Source: Candidatus Zixiibacteriota bacterium
GTDB taxonomy: Bacteria; Zixibacteria; MSB-5A5; GN15; JAAZOE01
Reading direction: 5' to 3'
Assembly: GCA_043819555.1 (NCBI GenBank)
Contig: JBDREQ010000009.1
Location: 99,006-163,005, forward strand
DNA length: 64,000 nt
Both the position numbers and the translations under genes were made by a program. The notes beneath the pieces were generated by a model that worked only from the letters and a program-made list of their open reading frames with translations, had not been told where the DNA came from and ran no database searches. Position 1 is the stretch's first letter; each line of letters starts with the position of its first letter. Shown one piece after another: positions 26,843 to 32,873 of this stretch.

Positions 26843-27079
26843 ACAGCACATTAAAAAACCATTGTATTAAAAATATATCTATATCGGATGATAAATCAAA
26901 TAATTATTGTGGGGATGAAGCACGAAGGGCGTCAGTTAATAATCAAATATATCGTCTTGCCTCGCAACGCTCCTTGAATCATCACCTTCATGTCCTGCCG
27001 TTAGGCAAGTTACAGCATCACATCGCCCAAACCACCCATTGAATTTGGGGCAACAGCTATCCCTATGTCCAAAAATAAC

Positions 27080-27108
27080 TTGACACGATTGCCGTAAATT
27101 ATTATCTT
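27080..27108 (+). promoter_or_regulatory. Sigma70-type promoter for the secreted-protein/TPR-bEBP operon
   Basis: TTGACA-N17-TATCTT. Confidence 0.6.
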
Positions 27109-27220
27109 TCGCATGTGAGGAGGTTCCCTTCTCCCACCCTGTTCATTAAGAAATCCTCGCCGCCCATTGGGAAAAGTATGCATAAAATATAAATAAAAAC
27201 CTTTAGCAAGGAGTGACGTC

Positions 27221-27586
27221 ATGTGGCGTAAAATTATTTTAGTCATGTTCGCGGCTCTAATATTGTTGGCTGCGTCATCGCCGGTTTTGGCCTACGACCC
27301 AAGGTGCCGACTCCCCTTCGGTGAACCATCAAACGATGAACACCCCTGGGGCGATGAAAACTATTCCAATGAACGACCCCTTATCGGATACGACCGAGTG
27401 TACACATTAACGGGAAATTATGATTTGATTTCCATAGCGGTACAGGGCGTCTGGGACAGCGCGGTTGGCAAAGCTAAGGAAATATTTGGCCTGCAGAATT
27501 CGCAAGCGCGAACTGCGACGGTTTCAGAAACCAGGACAATGCGAATTTACAATTCCCGGAAACCATCTGCGATGAGGAAAAGGTAA
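27221..27586 (+). CDS. Small secreted protein (candidate signalling pro-peptide)
   Basis: RBS GCAAGGAG; Sec signal MWRKIILVMFAALILLAASSPVLA; mature part contains NDEHPWGDE. Stop is 2 nt before the bEBP start. Confidence 0.75.
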   Translation: MWRKIILVMFAALILLAASSPVLAYDPRCRLPFGEPSNDEHPWGDENYSNERPLIGYDRVYTLTGNYDLISIAVQGVWDSAVGKAKEIFGLQNSQARTATVSETRTMRIYNSRKPSAMRKR

Positions 27587-27588
27587 TC

Positions 27589-29847
27589 ATGAGTCAAACT
27601 TTAAACACGAAATCGGATGTCCGGTTTGAATTATTGCGACAATTGTCGCAATCGATTCAGCGAGGAGATATTTCCGGTGGTCTGCGCATGGCGAAACAAA
27701 TACGCCAAAAAATGATCGCGGAAAAAGATCTTCTGGCCGGACAATTTCGGTGTCTTGAAGCGAAGCTCTGGCTATTGTCCGGTGATTACCATAAATCCCT
27801 CACGTCGGCGCGCGTGTCAGCTTCTTTCCTGACGCCATTTGGCGAATCGGAAGAACTGGCCGAAGCGTTTCTAATAGCAGGGAAGTCATTGATTAATATC
27901 GGTAATTACCGCGAAGCGGAAACAGCATTTTTAGACGCCGATTCACTTTACCGCAGGACCGACAATGATGCCGGTCGCATAAATGCGGTTAACCAACTGG
28001 CCCGAGTCAGCTTCATCCACGCCGAGTACAAAAGCGCGTTGAAGTATCTACTTGAAGCGATAAAACTTGCGGAGAAGACGGGCGACCGCAAAAAACTGGC
28101 TTTTTTATGGGGCAACCTTGGACGAGTCTATACGTTTTTGGGAAACTTCAAAAAAGCCAAAGAATCTCTCAAAATGGATCTTCAGCTTTGTGATGAATTT
28201 GACAATGAGAACGAGAGGGCAAAGGCACTGTTATCTCTCGGTTATATAGAGATGCAGCAAGAGAGATATGAAAAGGCCGAACAGCGATACGATGAGGCCA
28301 ATTTGATTCTTAAACGGCTGGACATGAAACGCGAACTCATAATCAGCCAGACGTATTATGGTGAATTAAGACTCAAATGCGGTGATCTGTCCGCGTCCAG
28401 GCGTTTATTGAATGAGGCGGCTGAGACGGCCAGGACAATGGCTCCCGAATCGTCGCTTCTGGTTATGCCTCTTCGGCTTCTGGCAGAGCTTGAATTGACC
28501 GGCTGTAGTTACAGTTCTGCATCGCGTTTGGCCAACAAGGCTTATGATTTGGCTCGAAAGATAAATGAGCCGATCGAAAAGGCCTGTGCACTAAGAATTA
28601 TTGCACAAATAGATTTCGCGAAAAAGCCGGAATGCATCAAAACTGTCGAGAAAACCCGGCAGACATTTCTAAAAGTTCTTGAAATAATGCATGATTATGA
28701 TGCCCGGTTTGAATTAGCGGAAACTCTGGTAATAATGGCTGAATGCGGTATTAGCTCTCAACGCCGCCGATTGGCTAATCTATTCCGAGCGAGTGATATA
28801 TATAATCGACTGGGAATAGAATCAAAGCTGGAAAAAACTCAGAAGCTTATCAATCAATCTGAAATTTCCACGGCTTCACCAAGAAAATCAAAACCAAAGC
28901 CTGCCTCGAATGCGCCAGTGATAATTACAATCAATGCCCGTATGGAAAAGATAATGGAGCAAATAGCCCTGGCGGCCAGGTCGGAATTGCCGGTTTTACT
29001 AATGGGCGAAACCGGAACCGGTAAGGACCTGCTGGCCAAATATTATCACAGCCATACCGGTCGGACGGGTGATTTTGTGGCAATAAATTGCGCCGCCTTT
29101 CCCGATACGCTTCTCGAGGCTGAGCTCTTTGGATACCGCAAAGGCGCATTTACCGGCGCCGGGGCTGATAAAGAGGGGCTCTTGCATCGCGCCAGCGGTG
29201 GAACATTCTTCCTTGATGAAATCGGAGAGATGTCGTTCATATCGCAGGCGAAATTATTGTCGGTGATTGAAACCTGCCGAACTCGACGGCTGGGTGGAAC
29301 CGAAGAAGAAAGCCTGGATATCAGGTTCATTGCCGCCACAAACTGTAATTTGGCTGAAATGGTTGATGACGGTACCTTCCGGAGAGATCTTTTTTATCGC
29401 CTGAGTGGAATCTGTTTTAAGATTCCCTCACTTGCGGAAAGACCGGAGGATATACCGATATTATTGAGACATTTTCTCGAGAGAGAAAACGCTTTGATAA
29501 AAGATCAAGACCTCGATCCGGAATTGATTAATCAATTCACATCGAGGACATGGCCTGGAAACATCAGACAGCTTGAATCGGAAGTCAAAAAGCTGGTATT
29601 GTTTTCGGAGATCGCTCGGGAGGATTCACTTGGCGATCTGGCTGAAATCCTGGTCCAGAATGATGGTGACAACGAAACCATAACTTTGATGAATCAGGTG
29701 GAACAGTTCGAGAAGGCATTGATTATCAAAGCCCTTCGCGGGTCGAGCGGGAATAAATCCCTCGCCGCGCGGACTTTGTCAATTCATGAATCGACCCTTC
29801 GGGCGAAAATGAAACGATATGATCTGAGTATGAGCATGATATCGTAA
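27589..29847 (+). CDS. TPR-repeat sigma54-dependent transcriptional activator (bEBP; TPR-AAA+-Fis HTH)
   Basis: About 430 aa of TPR-like helical repeats, then GETGTGKD, ELFGYRKGAFTGA, FFLDEIGEM, FRRDLFYRL, WPGNIRQL and HTH GNKSLAARTLSIHESTLRAKM. No receiver domain. Confidence 0.93.
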   Translation: MSQTLNTKSDVRFELLRQLSQSIQRGDISGGLRMAKQIRQKMIAEKDLLAGQFRCLEAKLWLLSGDYHKSLTSARVSASFLTPFGESEELAEAFLIAGKSLINIGNYREAETAFLDADSLYRRTDNDAGRINAVNQLARVSFIHAEYKSALKYLLEAIKLAEKTGDRKKLAFLWGNLGRVYTFLGNFKKAKESLKMDLQLCDEFDNENERAKALLSLGYIEMQQERYEKAEQRYDEANLILKRLDMKRELIISQTYYGELRLKCGDLSASRRLLNEAAETARTMAPESSLLVMPLRLLAELELTGCSYSSASRLANKAYDLARKINEPIEKACALRIIAQIDFAKKPECIKTVEKTRQTFLKVLEIMHDYDARFELAETLVIMAECGISSQRRRLANLFRASDIYNRLGIESKLEKTQKLINQSEISTASPRKSKPKPASNAPVIITINARMEKIMEQIALAARSELPVLLMGETGTGKDLLAKYYHSHTGRTGDFVAINCAAFPDTLLEAELFGYRKGAFTGAGADKEGLLHRASGGTFFLDEIGEMSFISQAKLLSVIETCRTRRLGGTEEESLDIRFIAATNCNLAEMVDDGTFRRDLFYRLSGICFKIPSLAERPEDIPILLRHFLERENALIKDQDLDPELINQFTSRTWPGNIRQLESEVKKLVLFSEIAREDSLGDLAEILVQNDGDNETITLMNQVEQFEKALIIKALRGSSGNKSLAARTLSIHESTLRAKMKRYDLSMSMIS

Positions 29848-29945
29848 ATTCATACGAATAAACACACTTCTTGCTAATAAGGGTAAGTTCTTATTTATTC
29901 AGGGCTTACCCTTTTTTTGTATCCGTATCGTAAAATCAAACGAAT
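29840..29945. promoter_or_regulatory. Two enhancer (UAS)-like repeats
   Basis: TATCGTAAATTCATACGAAT (29840-29859) and TATCGTAAAATCAAACGAAT (29926-29945) are 18/20 identical, each with TCGT...ACGA dyad symmetry. Confidence 0.65.
29879..29918 (+). terminator. Intrinsic terminator of the bEBP operon
   Basis: AAGGGTAAG...CTTACCCTT stem followed by a T-run. Confidence 0.8.
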
Positions 29946-30031
29946 GGGCATTCCGTGATCGAAATTGGTGTAAGGTTATAAGTGATTGTTTTTCATTTGG
30001 TTGGGCTGACGAAAATATCCATTTTCAAAAA

Positions 30032-30047
30032 AGGCACAAACCTTGCT
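30032..30047 (+). promoter_or_regulatory. Sigma54 -24/-12 promoter
   Basis: AGGCACAAACCTTGCT: GG (30033-34), 10 nt, GC (30045-46), matching GGCAC-N5-TTGC. An IHF-like TAAGTGATTGTTT lies at 29979-29991. Confidence 0.8.
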
Positions 30048-30057
30048 ATAGGATTTG

Positions 30058-30150
30058 TGTCATTTTTAGCTCCTTTTTGCGCTGCTTTAATAGTCCTTTT
30101 TTCTCGGTTGGCCACCCGTACTTGAGGGGAGTACGGGGGCCATTTTAATT
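30058..30150 (+). ncRNA. Candidate sigma54-dependent small RNA with anti-Shine-Dalgarno motifs
   Basis: Lies between the sigma54 promoter and a GC-rich hairpin (30109-30142) followed by TTTTAATTT. No credible ORF. Contains GTCATTTTTAGCTCCTTTTT and TAGTCCTTTTTT. Confidence 0.55.
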
Positions 30151-30226
30151 TATGGATAAAACTGTTTTTCAATCAGTCCAAGAAATTAATTGTATAAAGC
30201 CATGAAGAGATATATTTTGGAGCGAT

Positions 30227-30739
30227 ATGAAAATTTGCCGTGTTATTGTTTTGGTATTAATGATTACCGCCGCCGTCTGGGCGGATCCTGGACAGGAAAG
30301 ACATAATCCATTTCAGCTGTCGTCATTGGACGGAGAATGGGAAGGAATGGGCGAAGCGGTAATTCCCATGACGAAAATCCCGATTTCACTCGAGGGTGAA
30401 GCGGTTTTCAAATATGATTCTGCCCTGGGATATCTGCGGACTTCCATTATTGCGAAAAAGTTCTTTTTTTCTTATGCCGATTCAGGACATCTATATCATG
30501 ATCCCAGGACCGACTCCATTATCTGGGAAGTTTGGGACGGCTTCGGAAAATATGGAAAATATCACGGCATACTAAATGAACGGATGCTTACGGGAATGCT
30601 TATTAAGGGAAAAAGGCGGTTTGATATCGAAATCGATTTCGTGACAGACGATAGCCTCACTTTTGGTATGTCCAGCCAGAAACAAACTGATGAAATTCAG
30701 CCTCGTGCCAATATCAGTCTCTGGCGCGTAAAAAAATAA
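30227..30739 (+). CDS. Hypothetical secreted protein
   Basis: Signal peptide (MKICRVIVLVLMITAAVWA); LDGEWEG and a beta-rich pattern suggest a lipocalin-like barrel. Confidence 0.65.
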   Translation: MKICRVIVLVLMITAAVWADPGQERHNPFQLSSLDGEWEGMGEAVIPMTKIPISLEGEAVFKYDSALGYLRTSIIAKKFFFSYADSGHLYHDPRTDSIIWEVWDGFGKYGKYHGILNERMLTGMLIKGKRRFDIEIDFVTDDSLTFGMSSQKQTDEIQPRANISLWRVKK

Positions 30740-30800
30740 TTCCTCAGTCTTATTTCCCGAGCTGTTGAATCCTGTGGGTATTTTTTATATATATACTCCC

Positions 30801-31331
30801 ATGGAAGATTATCATAAAAACCGAAGAGAAGAATTGATGAGCATGCCCAAAGAAAAACTCATCGGTATGCTCGAAGATGCCGCCAAAAACTGGCTGGCGC
30901 ATGACGGACTATGGTTTTTGACGGTCGAGTCTGAACATGGCCTTGAAAACGCAATCTCGCATGATACAAACGCGTGGGAGAAATTTACCGTCATCGAAGC
31001 CCGGCGGATTATGAAACGTCAGGGTATCGAGCCAAATTCTGGTCTGGAAGGATTAAAACAGGCTCTAAAATATCGGCTCTATGCACATCTCAATATCCAG
31101 GAAATTGTTGATGAAATGAAAAAAAGTTTTATATTCAGGATGAATGACTGCCGGGTCCAGTCGGCTCGCAAAAGGGACGGACGTCCTGATTTCCCCTGTA
31201 AACCGGTTGGGTTAGTCGAATACGCTTTATTTGCCTCAACGATTGACTCCCGGATTAAAACAGAATGTGTTTGCTGTCCGCCCGATGATCACCCCGAAAA
31301 TTACTATTGTTCCTGGAAATTCTCCATTTAA
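30801..31331 (+). CDS. DUF6125-family (4VR-like) protein
   Basis: KNWLAHDGLWF, MNDCRVQSARKR...FPCK and CCPPDDHP...CSWKF. Confidence 0.75.
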   Translation: MEDYHKNRREELMSMPKEKLIGMLEDAAKNWLAHDGLWFLTVESEHGLENAISHDTNAWEKFTVIEARRIMKRQGIEPNSGLEGLKQALKYRLYAHLNIQEIVDEMKKSFIFRMNDCRVQSARKRDGRPDFPCKPVGLVEYALFASTIDSRIKTECVCCPPDDHPENYYCSWKFSI

Positions 31332-31500
31332 ATAGCAAAACGGCCGGCTTGGGGATCCGGCCGTCTGCTCTTGCAGGGGCAATTAAGGCAAGGAGGTTAC
31401 TATTTGCCGGGTCATTCGGGGGAAAGTAACCGGCAAACCAGAACACTTTGTATCAAGTGGGTAGTTCCCTGATGCGACACAAATTGTGCTCTATTAGGTT
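31330..31500 (-). ncRNA. Candidate structured small RNA with C-rich loops
   Basis: Minus-strand hairpins TTTGCCGG/CCGGCAAA with a TTTCCCCC loop, single-stranded AACCTCCTTGCC, and terminator ACGGCCGG/CCGGCCGT followed by TTTT. Confidence 0.45.
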
Positions 31501-31695: not shown

Positions 31696-32873
31696 TTGGA
31701 TTCGACACGATTGAGGAGTATTCAGGGGGAATTGGCCCGTTTGGGATTAGACGGATGGCTGATATATGATTTTCATGGTCAAAACGATGTCGCCGTTAGC
31801 TTTTTGGGGCTTTCCGGAATAATTACCCACCGCTCATTTTATTTCATACCAGCCAGCGGACAACCAATCGCTTTTATTCACAATGTTGAAAAAAAACCGT
31901 TTGAATTATTACCGGGACGCAAGTTTTTTTACTCATCTTATCGCCTGCTTGAAGAAGAGCTGGCCCGGGAGCTGAAAGGCAAAAAGCGTCTGGCAATGGA
32001 ATATTCCGAAAAAGGCCGTTTGCCATATATCGGAAAAGTTGATGCCGGCACCATTGAACTGATTCGATCGTTTGGAGTGGAAGTTGTCACATCGGGCAAT
32101 CTGGTTGCAAAATTCGATGCCTGTTTGACCCCGGATCAGGTTATCATGCAAAAAGATGCGGCGGAAAGTATCAATCGCATAAAAGACGAAGCATTTACTT
32201 TTATTAAGGATAAATTGAACGGTGGCGAGGTTTTAACCGAGTATGAAGTAGTTCGATATATCATGGATAAATTTGCCCGGGCAGGGATGACGACTGACCA
32301 TCCCCCGATTTGCGCCGTCGGACCCAATGCCGGCAATCCTCATTATGTCCCGACCGCTGATAATTGCGCCAAAATTAAAAATGACAATTTGGTGCTTATT
32401 GACCTTTGGCCAAGCTGCAAAAACCAAGATCGGTCTTCGCCGATATAACCTGGATGGCTTATACCGGCAGCGATCTGCCGGAAGAGTACGTCAGAAATTT
32501 CGCATTGATATGTATGGCTCGTGATGCGGCGGTCGATTTTTTGATCACAAACTGGGGACAGAAAAACATTTTTGGGTACCAGGTTGATGATGTTTGCCGG
32601 GGCGTGATAGCGGCCGACGACCTGGGGGATTATTTCACGCATCGCACCGGACACTCCATCGCCGAATCGGTTCATGGCTCCGGGCCAAATATCGATAACC
32701 TTGAAACTGAAGACCGCCGACTGTTGATGCCGGGGCATCTGTTTTCGATAGAACCTGGATTGTATTTTAAAGATTATGGCGTTCGGACGGAAATTGACGT
32801 ATTAATTGATGAGACCGGCCCGGTTATTACCACCCTGCCGGTACAGGAAGAAATTATCCGTTTGCTCGCGTAA
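31696..32873 (+). pseudogene. Xaa-Pro aminopeptidase (M24B) split by a 1-nt frameshift
   Basis: ORF 31696-32448 (..NPHY..LVLIDLW) continues in ORF 32406-32873 (AK..FADITW, HRTGHSI, FSIEPGLY, GVRTE). TGG-GCC lacks one G near 32409. Could be a sequencing error. Confidence 0.8.

Follow-up and report, generated by a model that had tools for sequence, protein, structure and literature searches.

The locus described here occupies positions 27080-30150, on the + strand, of a 64,000-nucleotide stretch of DNA (contig JBDREQ010000009.1, positions 99,006 to 163,005; GenBank assembly GCA_043819555.1), which is called the window below. It comes from a 3.35-Mb metagenome-assembled genome of Candidatus Zixiibacteriota that is 97% complete and carries rpoN (at C57) as well as about 17 sigma-54 activators. 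The locus encodes a small exported protein, a sigma-54 activator of the bacterial enhancer-binding protein (bEBP) class with tetratricopeptide repeats (TPR) as its regulatory part and, past a terminator lying between two dyads, a putative small RNA (sRNA) with a sigma-54 promoter of its own. We consider it rather probable that these elements form a self-contained regulatory module of one Zixibacteria order. Their succession is as follows.

27080..27108, + strand: sigma70-type promoter, TTGACA-17-TATCTT, found by a consensus scan with 10 of 12 matches
27221..27586, + strand: open reading frame (ORF) of the small exported protein, 121 amino acids (aa)
27589..29847, + strand: ORF of the TPR-bEBP, 752 aa, starting 2 nt past the stop of the small ORF
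29840..29859: distal enhancer-like dyad, core TCGTA-N6-TACGA at 29842-29857, overlapping the bEBP stop codon
29876..29922, + strand: intrinsic operon terminator, an inverted repeat with 12-nt arms that are 92% complementary, followed by a T-run
29926..29945: proximal enhancer-like dyad, TCGTA-N6-AACGA at 29928-29943, 105 bp upstream of the promoter GG
30033..30047, + strand: sigma-54 promoter of the -24/-12 type, GGCAC-N5-TTGCT (GGCACAAACCTTGCT)
30058..30150, + strand: putative sRNA of about 93 nt, ending in a hairpin at 30110-30141

An original prediction, made from the letters of the stretch alone, had read this locus as a peptide-sensing circuit with an sRNA output. Eight of the nine elements that it named are present where it had placed them, the exception being a site resembling those of integration host factor (IHF); its overall interpretation is partly supported. 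The elements are judged real because they are conserved across relatives, their occurrence in the window alone being within chance. The comparison covers the family of the window (f1), for which 13 loci had enough sequence (the window and 12 others), and three other families of the same order (f2, f3 and f4). The pair formed by the small protein and the bEBP is present in all four sampled families; the unit made of dyad, promoter and sRNA is present in f1, f2 and f3 and in 3 of 15 f4 genomes.

The activator and its TPR domain

In the activator, about 10.5 TPR-like repeats span residues 10-423; a linker joins them to a sigma-54 AAA+ domain with a GAFTGA motif (445-677), which is followed by a Fis-type helix-turn-helix (HTH) (701-743). 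Pfam recognizes TPR_12, Sigma54_activat (PF00158, E 2e-59), AAA_lid_14 and HTH_8 (E 5e-12), and the scan returned no receiver domain, which bears out the composition first proposed for this protein: TPR repeats, an intact GAFTGA-bearing AAA+ domain and a Fis HTH, with no receiver. Among 37 orthologues, Walker A (GETGTGK) and the DE of Walker B are invariant, as are G519, A520, T522 and A524 of the GAFTGA loop, F521 and G523 being kept in at least 90%. The AAA+ domain matches those of NtrC1, FleQ and FlrC structurally with a TMt of 0.85-0.88; PspF and LuxO were also matched. Thus the locus and its genome hold what is found with activators of the bEBP class: an AAA+ domain with Walker A and B, GAFTGA, an HTH, rpoN and a -24/-12 promoter. 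A search with the TPR part found orthologues of about 750 aa in all 61 genomes of the order searched, and a search for related loci with the bEBP in a collection of genome contigs gave only two distant AAA+ matches.

AlphaFold2, run on a 37-row alignment, predicts 21 helices over residues 10-423, then a disordered linker (427-440), the AAA+ domain and the HTH. The mean predicted local distance difference test (pLDDT) is 84 over the full length and 92 in the TPR part by itself. Domain matches and model together indicate that the regulatory domain is a TPR superhelix of about 410 residues, not a receiver domain. The TPR part was folded and searched separately, since AAA+ matches filled the fold search made with the whole model. 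By sequence, its closest relatives are LGN/Pins proteins (E 4e-17), and RapJ (9e-5) and RapI (6e-4) were also found. Foldseek ranked LGN first, the best TM-score going to MalT domain III. Structural re-ranking placed Rap-pheromone complexes on top, and the figures (MalT domain III 30.8, RapJ-CSF 30.5, APC5 29.8, NprR 28.9, LGN about 28) amount to ties, all of them long TPR superhelices whose ligands are peptides or small molecules. The predicted fold therefore fits a ligand-binding sensor without singling out the RRNPP family of peptide receptors.

The exported mini-protein

The 121-aa product of the upstream ORF carries a signal peptide, a DEHPWGD motif at residues 39-45 and a variable region that is predicted to be disordered. 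The Sec signal ascribed to it from the start could be seen by eye: a K/R n-region, a hydrophobic core and a VLA|YD site. An alignment of 37 orthologues shows only three conserved features, namely the signal-peptide-like N-terminus, a [DE][DE]HPWGG[DE] motif and a weak TGxxxID block. The HPWGG motif lies about 15-25 residues past the signal-peptide-like N-terminus; its W and G are invariant and H, P and G are kept in at least 90% of the orthologues. The protein matches no Pfam or NCBIfam family. A profile search gathered 48 relatives, all unnamed or annotated as 'hypothetical', and the organism names given are those of Zixibacteria or an unclassified bacterium only. Its ESM Atlas model is poor (pLDDT 0.51), and an ESM Atlas search with it gave no usable feature match, only low-TM structural neighbours of that poor model.

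The association with the activator gene is tight. Among the loci encoding an activator of this kind (class 1), 39 of 39 have a signal-peptide ORF of 107-137 aa directly upstream, as anticipated if homologues of the TPR-bEBP were to share the arrangement of the window. The distance from the stop of the small ORF to the start of the bEBP ranges from -4 to +29 nt in 37 of the 38 loci measured; the 38th shows a 29-nt overlap of the two, with an uncertain start call. Genome-wide, only two ORFs join a signal peptide to HPW[GE], and both precede the two TPR-bEBPs of this genome. For the TPR part (residues 1-440) and the mature mini-protein (25-121), complex prediction on 37-row alignments of each, without controls, scored 0.26 and 0.00 against a mark of 0.32, which counts neither for nor against an interaction.

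The dyads and the sigma-54 promoter

The two 20-nt dyad copies form a direct repeat, being 90% alike, and both cores are invariant in 13 of 13 f1 loci, so that the pair of 20-bp dyad repeats described in the original prediction is well founded. The exact sequence TCGTA-N6-TACGA occurs once in the 3.35-Mb genome, at the distal dyad, against 3.8 occurrences expected from composition. A GGCAY-N5-TTGCT promoter is found 184-209 nt past the bEBP stop, with a variable spacer, in all 13 f1 loci; the search for a -24/-12 promoter and a short terminated RNA downstream of homologous activators, which the same prediction had proposed as a check, thus came out positive throughout this family. Beyond it, GGCAY-N5-TTGC(T/A) precedes the RNA in 19 of 20 f2/f3 loci, the 20th having TTGTT. 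The promoter is directly upstream of the RNA in 17 f3 loci and lies 77-136 nt before the model start in 3 f2 loci. In 20 of 20 f2/f3 loci, a CGTA-N6-TACG dyad precedes the promoter by about 113-115 bp. There is one dyad in the other families and two in that of the window.

An IHF-like site had also been proposed between the dyads and the promoter. The best match, 8 of 9 positions at 29979-29991 on the minus strand, is equalled in 51 of 300 shuffles and is therefore not above chance.

The small RNA

Directly after the promoter, a stretch of about 95 nt is nearly invariant in 13 of 13 f1 loci. The 5' end of the putative transcript (UGUCAUUUUU) was deduced from promoter spacing, which predicts a start at about 30057-30059, exactly where conservation begins. 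Its 3' part forms a hairpin followed by AUUUUAAUUU, the U-tract of the window being interrupted. Across families the length is about 93-110 nt and the composition CU-rich. The terminal hairpin is paired in 95.8% of the alignment cells of 37 sequences, with compensatory changes at 12 of its 13 pairs, and none of 500 shuffles reaches any of the measures observed. Its loop, GAGGGG, is kept in 37 of 37 sequences. Outside the terminal hairpin, the RNA is predicted to be single-stranded; the sRNAs of f3 show a second, short hairpin further upstream. These data agree with the untranslated unit of about 90 nt ending in a hairpin that had been noticed at first. A coding reading of the RNA, as a 22-codon frame starting at GUG, was tried and ruled out by 1-nt indels between orthologues.

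Two motifs of the RNA resemble an anti-Shine-Dalgarno (anti-SD) sequence: CUCCUUUUU (30070-30078) and GUCCUUUUUUCUCGG (30093-30107), the second being invariant in 14 family genomes. The 16S rRNA tail of the organism reads CACCUCCUUUCU, and SD-like cores precede 40% of its long ORFs against a background of 10%. The anti-SD character attributed to the RNA is thus confirmed, inasmuch as its CU-rich motifs resemble the anti-SD tail of the organism's own 16S rRNA. Rfam 15, searched at E up to 5, has no family over 30058-30150; its sole match is a chance-level sbrA hit over the operon terminator, at 20 bits against a gathering score of 45. No public RNA runs were listed for positions 27000-31400.

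Distribution of the RNA and its linkage to the activator gene

Two covariance models were used, R1 built from 13 sequences and R2 from 37. With R1, 100 of 151 genomes of the order gave an sRNA match (f1 13/13, f2 5/5, f3 79/99, f4 2/33); with R2, matches came from 9/9 genomes of f1, 3/3 of f2, 52/55 of f3 and 5/15 of f4. Inspection of the five f4 matches of R2 left three as real, the other two being without any promoter. Matching genomes almost all carry a single copy, and R2 gave no match in 68 genomes from 15 further families of the phylum.

In f2 and f3, the sRNA lies on the same strand as the bEBP gene and a few hundred nt past it in 24 of the 26 genomes for which both the search with the TPR part and a covariance model gave a match, the other two being split by contig ends. 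In three f4 genomes it is unlinked from the bEBP gene and sits between purA-like and dehydrogenase genes; even there, a TTCGTA-N6-TACGAG-type dyad stands 113 bp before the retained promoter. What follows the sRNA varies. In f1, a same-strand DUF6125 gene is downstream in 12 of 12 loci and the gene of a 170-aa secreted protein in 6 of 12 (tblastn), while in f3 the next gene is one for a bacterial microcompartment (BMC) shell protein or EutN, a symporter or a dehydrogenase, or a gene on the opposite strand. Since the downstream gene varies and the unit is kept even when relocated, dyad, promoter and RNA appear to travel as one piece, tied to the activator and not to any gene downstream. The original view of a sigma-54 activator with an sRNA product holds well on these comparisons: the RNA is present in one copy per genome, adjoins the bEBP gene in three families and keeps its promoter, with a dyad about 113 bp upstream, where it has moved. 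The output half of the module, from bEBP to sRNA, is strongly supported by this conservation.

Further classes of TPR-bEBP

The genome contains a second TPR-bEBP and a small ORF in front of it, both outside the window:

C3:155242-158553: paralogous pair, a 103-aa signal-peptide ORF followed by a 977-aa activator

In the small ORF of this pair, GEHPWEEN comes directly after the signal peptide. In 17 of 17 loci, activators of this second class, TPR-GAF-bEBPs, come with a signal-peptide ORF of their own; the motif, xPW[D/E/N/A], again stands right after the signal peptide, with PF in one locus. In 8 of 8 loci of a third class, whose TPR-bEBPs measure about 730 aa, the activator gene is preceded by a signal-peptide ORF bearing an acidic Trp motif; at two of them the small ORF is present in two tandem copies. 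That three anciently diverged receptor classes should each have their own variant of the mini-protein makes a direct functional pairing the most economical reading.

The 977-aa activator has the order TPR-GAF-Sigma54_activat-HTH_8, and its gene is followed by one for a secreted M28 peptidase with a dockerin domain. Examples of the class-3 motif, from loci in other genomes, are DEDPWGEG, AHPWDDP and ETGWN.

Candidate targets of the small RNA

The genome has six genes for zf-HC2 anti-sigma factors; a FlgM-type anti-sigma factor was sought in it and none was found. One of the six overlaps the gene of a sigma factor of the extracytoplasmic function (ECF) type:

C51:2937-4152: ECF sigma gene and zf-HC2 anti-sigma gene, with a 44-nt overlap

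The start of the anti-sigma gene, at C51:3496, falls inside the 3' end of the ECF sigma gene. Pairing is possible between its start region, AACCGAGAAUGGAGGAA, and GUCCUUUUUUCUCGGU; scored against the second CU-rich region of the sRNA, the start region reaches -21.4 kcal/mol and ranks 7th among 7,527. In the family, 14 of 14 genomes retain this duplex, with energies of -19 to -25 kcal/mol that at most 10 of 200 shuffles equal. Among 30 loci of the order, 16 share exactly the same opening 15 nt of the anti-sigma gene, AUGCGUUGUCGAAAG, and the remaining 14 depart from it at one or two positions, for the most part third-codon ones. We regard this start region as a possible target of the sRNA, though one that is less likely than not.

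Broader searches of the genome were less informative. A seed-and-extend search yielded inflated multi-loop duplexes with no clear winner, ungapped scoring of the 7,527 start regions gave no outlier, and a register-locked search for sites antisense to the sRNA 5' end (ideal site GGAGCUAAAAAUGACA) found no perfect one; the best, in front of a 98-aa ORF at C17:11910, pairs at 21 of 26 positions.

Operon promoter, leader, terminator and neighbouring genes

The sigma70 promoter proposed upstream of the small ORF is borne out: besides its 10 of 12 consensus matches, TTGAC and TAT..T are kept in 11 of 11 aligned family loci. Its position and conservation indicate that this sigma70-type promoter drives a two-gene operon in which the small protein and the bEBP are translationally coupled. 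Three features recur in the leader of about 130 nt (27110-27220) in 11 of 11 family loci: a hairpin-like block GUGAGGAGG...CUCCCAC at 27115-37, the conserved motif CCUCACCGC and, as SD, a strong AAGGAG. The purine-rich arms of the leader are complementary in kind to the CU-rich motifs of the sRNA; therefore, a feedback of the sRNA on the operon is conceivable.

A terminator had been predicted at the end of the operon, and a hairpin with its T-run is indeed found there. The arms occupy 29876-29887 and 29905-29916 and enclose a 17-nt loop, because of which a simple terminator scan did not pick it up. A hairpin and a T-rich tract stand between the dyads in 13 of 13 f1 loci, the position being kept and the stem sequences differing: GGGTAAG/CTTACCC in the genus of the window, and GATAAGCGCATG/CATGCGCTTATC or a near variant in the other 11 loci.

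Downstream of the sRNA and on the same strand, positions 30227-31331 of the window encode the 170-aa secreted protein, of no known family, and the DUF6125 protein. The gene past DUF6125 (31696-32873) is split into overlapping ORFs of 250 and 155 aa; relatives have a single ORF of about 392 aa, and either a frameshift or an assembly error accounts for the split. Genes for BMC shell and EutN-like proteins, judging from N-terminal sequences, come just past the sRNA in about half of the f3 loci.

A model for the module and its alternatives

The reading that we favour, and which we hold to be somewhat better than an even prospect as a whole, is that of a TPR-bEBP, controlled by a mini-protein, that switches on a sigma-54-dependent sRNA. 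The activator would bind the dyads through its Fis-type HTH and, when the TPR domain is permissive, would assemble and use ATP to open the sigma-54 promoter. The sRNA would be the main, perhaps the only, direct product of the activator. The co-encoded small protein, or a fragment of it bearing the Trp motif, would control the TPR domain, be it as precursor, as processed peptide or after re-import, and with either sign. On genomic grounds the small protein is a strong candidate for this role, and a more plausible one than the letters of the stretch alone could show. The sRNA is expected to act by base-pairing, its single-stranded CU-rich stretches covering ribosome-binding sites; if the anti-sigma start region is among the sites blocked, the ECF sigma factor would be freed.

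Several observations weigh against this reading. The small protein is predicted to be exported, whereas the TPR domain is cytoplasmic, so that a direct contact between them would need an extra step. The binding of the dyads by the bEBP is deduced from their co-occurrence, and the existence and ends of the sRNA from the DNA. Taken on its own, the window shows counts within chance: dyads with at most one mismatch number 3 against 1.6 expected (22 of 100 shuffles reach this), and the sigma-54 promoter pattern occurs once against 0.5 expected (40 of 100 shuffles). R2 gave no sRNA match in 10 of 15 f4 and 3 of 55 f3 genomes. Three f2 orthologues that were examined have GAYTDA instead of GAFTGA, yet retain the dyad, the sigma-54 promoter and a longer sRNA. 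As to the target, six other start regions score equal to or above the anti-sigma site, and in eight f3 genomes the duplex reaches z <= -2 in three only, being weak or absent in the other five. Moreover, the site is dual-coding, since it overlaps the coding end of the sigma gene, and its conservation is therefore confounded.

The alternatives for the input differ in what the small protein does. According to the original prediction, the pro-peptide is exported and cut, and a peptide bearing the Trp motif is re-imported and bound in the TPR groove, making this a quorum-sensing system with a LuxO-Qrr-like output. In its favour, only the signal peptide and a short motif of the small protein are conserved, the rest being variable and modelled as disordered (pLDDT 0.51). 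The signal-peptide ORF upstream in 39 of 39 loci, the further receptor classes, each with its own motif variant, the tandem small ORFs at two loci and the Rap-pheromone complexes at the top of the structural re-ranking all speak for an RRNPP-like input. This part of the claim is offset by the ties of the same TPR domain with MalT domain III, APC5 and LGN, which are not RRNPP proteins, and by a motif that within each class is nearly invariant across the order, leaving no strain-level pherotypes. One gene for an Opp/Dpp-type SBP_bac_5 protein (44 bits) is present in the genome, which shows nothing on this peptide, and the locus has no linked gene for a processing protease or a dedicated importer. 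A peptide would need to pass the outer membrane twice. Proteins of 107-137 aa are longer than RRNPP pro-peptides, and the motif is internal or N-terminal, while Phr and PapR peptides are mostly C-terminal; the effector domains of RRNPP receptors, an N-terminal HTH or a phosphatase bundle, are absent from the bEBP. Re-import is thus speculative, and we think this reading unlikely. Its widest form, which we rate no higher, is a diderm peptide-signalling family in which up to three TPR-sigma-54 classes per genome would each read the Trp motif of their own mini-protein, having co-diversified as Rap and Phr did, class 1 acting through an anti-SD sRNA that blocks the ECF anti-sigma factor and releases the sigma factor. 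The small protein might instead be no ligand at all: it could be a periplasmic or surface operon-mate, for instance a co-factor of the pathway, the TPR domain sensing another protein or a small molecule in the manner of MalT domain III. This would accord with the different predicted compartments of the two proteins and with the TPR_MalT model of Pfam, which scores 41 bits on the bEBP (below its cut-off of 45) and 64 bits on the class-2 paralogue (above it). It is hard to square with a pairing that holds in 39/39, 17/17 and 8/8 loci of three anciently diverged classes, with stop and start codons that abut or overlap, and with the lack of any other constantly linked gene, for operon sharing without a direct functional tie rarely survives such divergence; we give it a minor share of the probability, about one part in five. 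Precursor sensing would do away with the compartment problem without re-import. Here the TPR domain binds the nascent, unexported small protein, Sec export removes the ligand, and the module reports export capacity or the state of the envelope, the sRNA adjusting translation. The coupling of stop and start codons in nearly all loci and the closeness of the motif to the signal peptide, which it follows directly in class 2, would suit such a scheme. It is pure inference, no precedent for a TPR-bEBP of this sort is known to us, and the need for three classes with different motifs would be left unexplained, which makes it improbable in our eyes.

On the output side, the sigma-54 promoter might in reality serve the downstream genes (DUF6125 in f1), the RNA being their 5' leader or attenuator. 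The same-strand DUF6125 gene after the RNA in 12 of 12 f1 loci, the same-strand BMC genes in about half of the f3 loci and the interrupted U-tract of the window (AUUUUAAUUU) are what a leader would lead one to expect. Against this, the family of the downstream gene varies between and within families, and the gene is sometimes on the opposite strand; the f4 unit stands between unrelated genes, 470 nt from the next one; the RNA is far more conserved than any downstream start region; and a strong covarying hairpin with a U-run is kept everywhere. We hold a leader to be quite unlikely.

Relation to known systems

In the LuxO-Qrr system of Vibrio, a sigma-54 activator has small regulatory RNAs, which end a signalling pathway, as its direct products. 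LuxO is controlled by phosphorylation of its receiver domain, and the Qrr RNAs are Hfq-dependent and of different sequence. The AAA+ domain of the bEBP matches the catalytic domain of LuxO structurally (TMt 0.81); the protein as such differs, scoring 192 bits with the NCBIfam LuxO model against a cut-off of 800, and the sRNA matches no Qrr family in Rfam. As in the RRNPP systems Rap-Phr and NprR-NprX, a small signal-peptide gene adjoins that of the receptor, and RapJ and RapI are found by sequence. In those systems the effector is an N-terminal HTH or a phosphatase bundle; in the bEBP it is a C-terminal sigma-54 AAA+ domain with HTH_8. Other differences are the upstream position of the small gene, its product of 107-137 aa and the host, a diderm of the FCB group. 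The TPR sensor recalls MalT domain III (structural re-ranking; TPR_MalT at 41 bits, below cut-off), from which the rest of the protein departs: the NTPase is a sigma-54 AAA+ domain and not a STAND NOD, the domain order is reversed, and the output is a sigma-54 promoter.

The closest parallel for the gene arrangement is nla19-pxr of Myxococcus xanthus, where pxr follows nla19 after a 262-nt spacer and is transcribed from a sigma-54 promoter into a 108-nt RNA (PMC5568312). Here too a bEBP gene is followed by a sigma-54-dependent sRNA gene, with a gap of about 210 nt and an RNA of about 93 nt. The differences are that Nla19 is a response regulator and the bEBP of the window a TPR protein without a receiver, that no secreted small protein is described in the available part of that account, that the RNAs are unrelated in sequence (no Rfam match) and that the phyla are different. 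In Pseudomonas, CbrB directly activates crcZ in an IHF-dependent way from upstream binding sites; CbrB, part of a two-component system, recognizes subsites that are not palindromic, and CrcZ is a protein sponge for Crc (PMC6296734). The likeness lies in a sigma-54 activator with an sRNA gene, and the difference in a palindromic enhancer and an RNA that looks to be of the base-pairing type in the present case. The sRNA of the window has the layout of pxr, crcZ and qrr1: it is predicted to be non-coding and terminated, and has its own -24/-12 promoter beside a bEBP gene.

The architecture had been put forward as undescribed. A literature search, which did not cover subscription journals, returned nothing on sigma-54 in Zixibacteria or on TPR-bEBPs with sRNAs; this part of the claim stands for the whole, but a bEBP gene followed by a sigma-54-dependent sRNA gene was already known from nla19-pxr. 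What appears to be undescribed, in the literature found and in Rfam and NCBIfam, is the RNA family, the TPR input on a sigma-54 activator and its fixed pairing with exported Trp-motif mini-proteins.

Significance

The usual switch of a sigma-54 activator is a receiver, GAF, PAS or similar domain. A TPR switch resembling those of Rap and MalT, always paired with an exported mini-protein, would be a new input into sigma-54 transcription. Receptor-peptide logic of the RRNPP kind, known from Firmicutes and their phages, would reach an uncultured diderm phylum should the ligand be the mini-protein or a peptide derived from it. The sRNA, at about 100 nt, is a candidate new family ready for a description of the Rfam kind. 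With its few parts and a direct target that is probably the only one, the module lends itself to tests in a heterologous rpoN+ host. We know of no cultured representative of the Zixibacteria, and the module would give a handle on regulation in this phylum.

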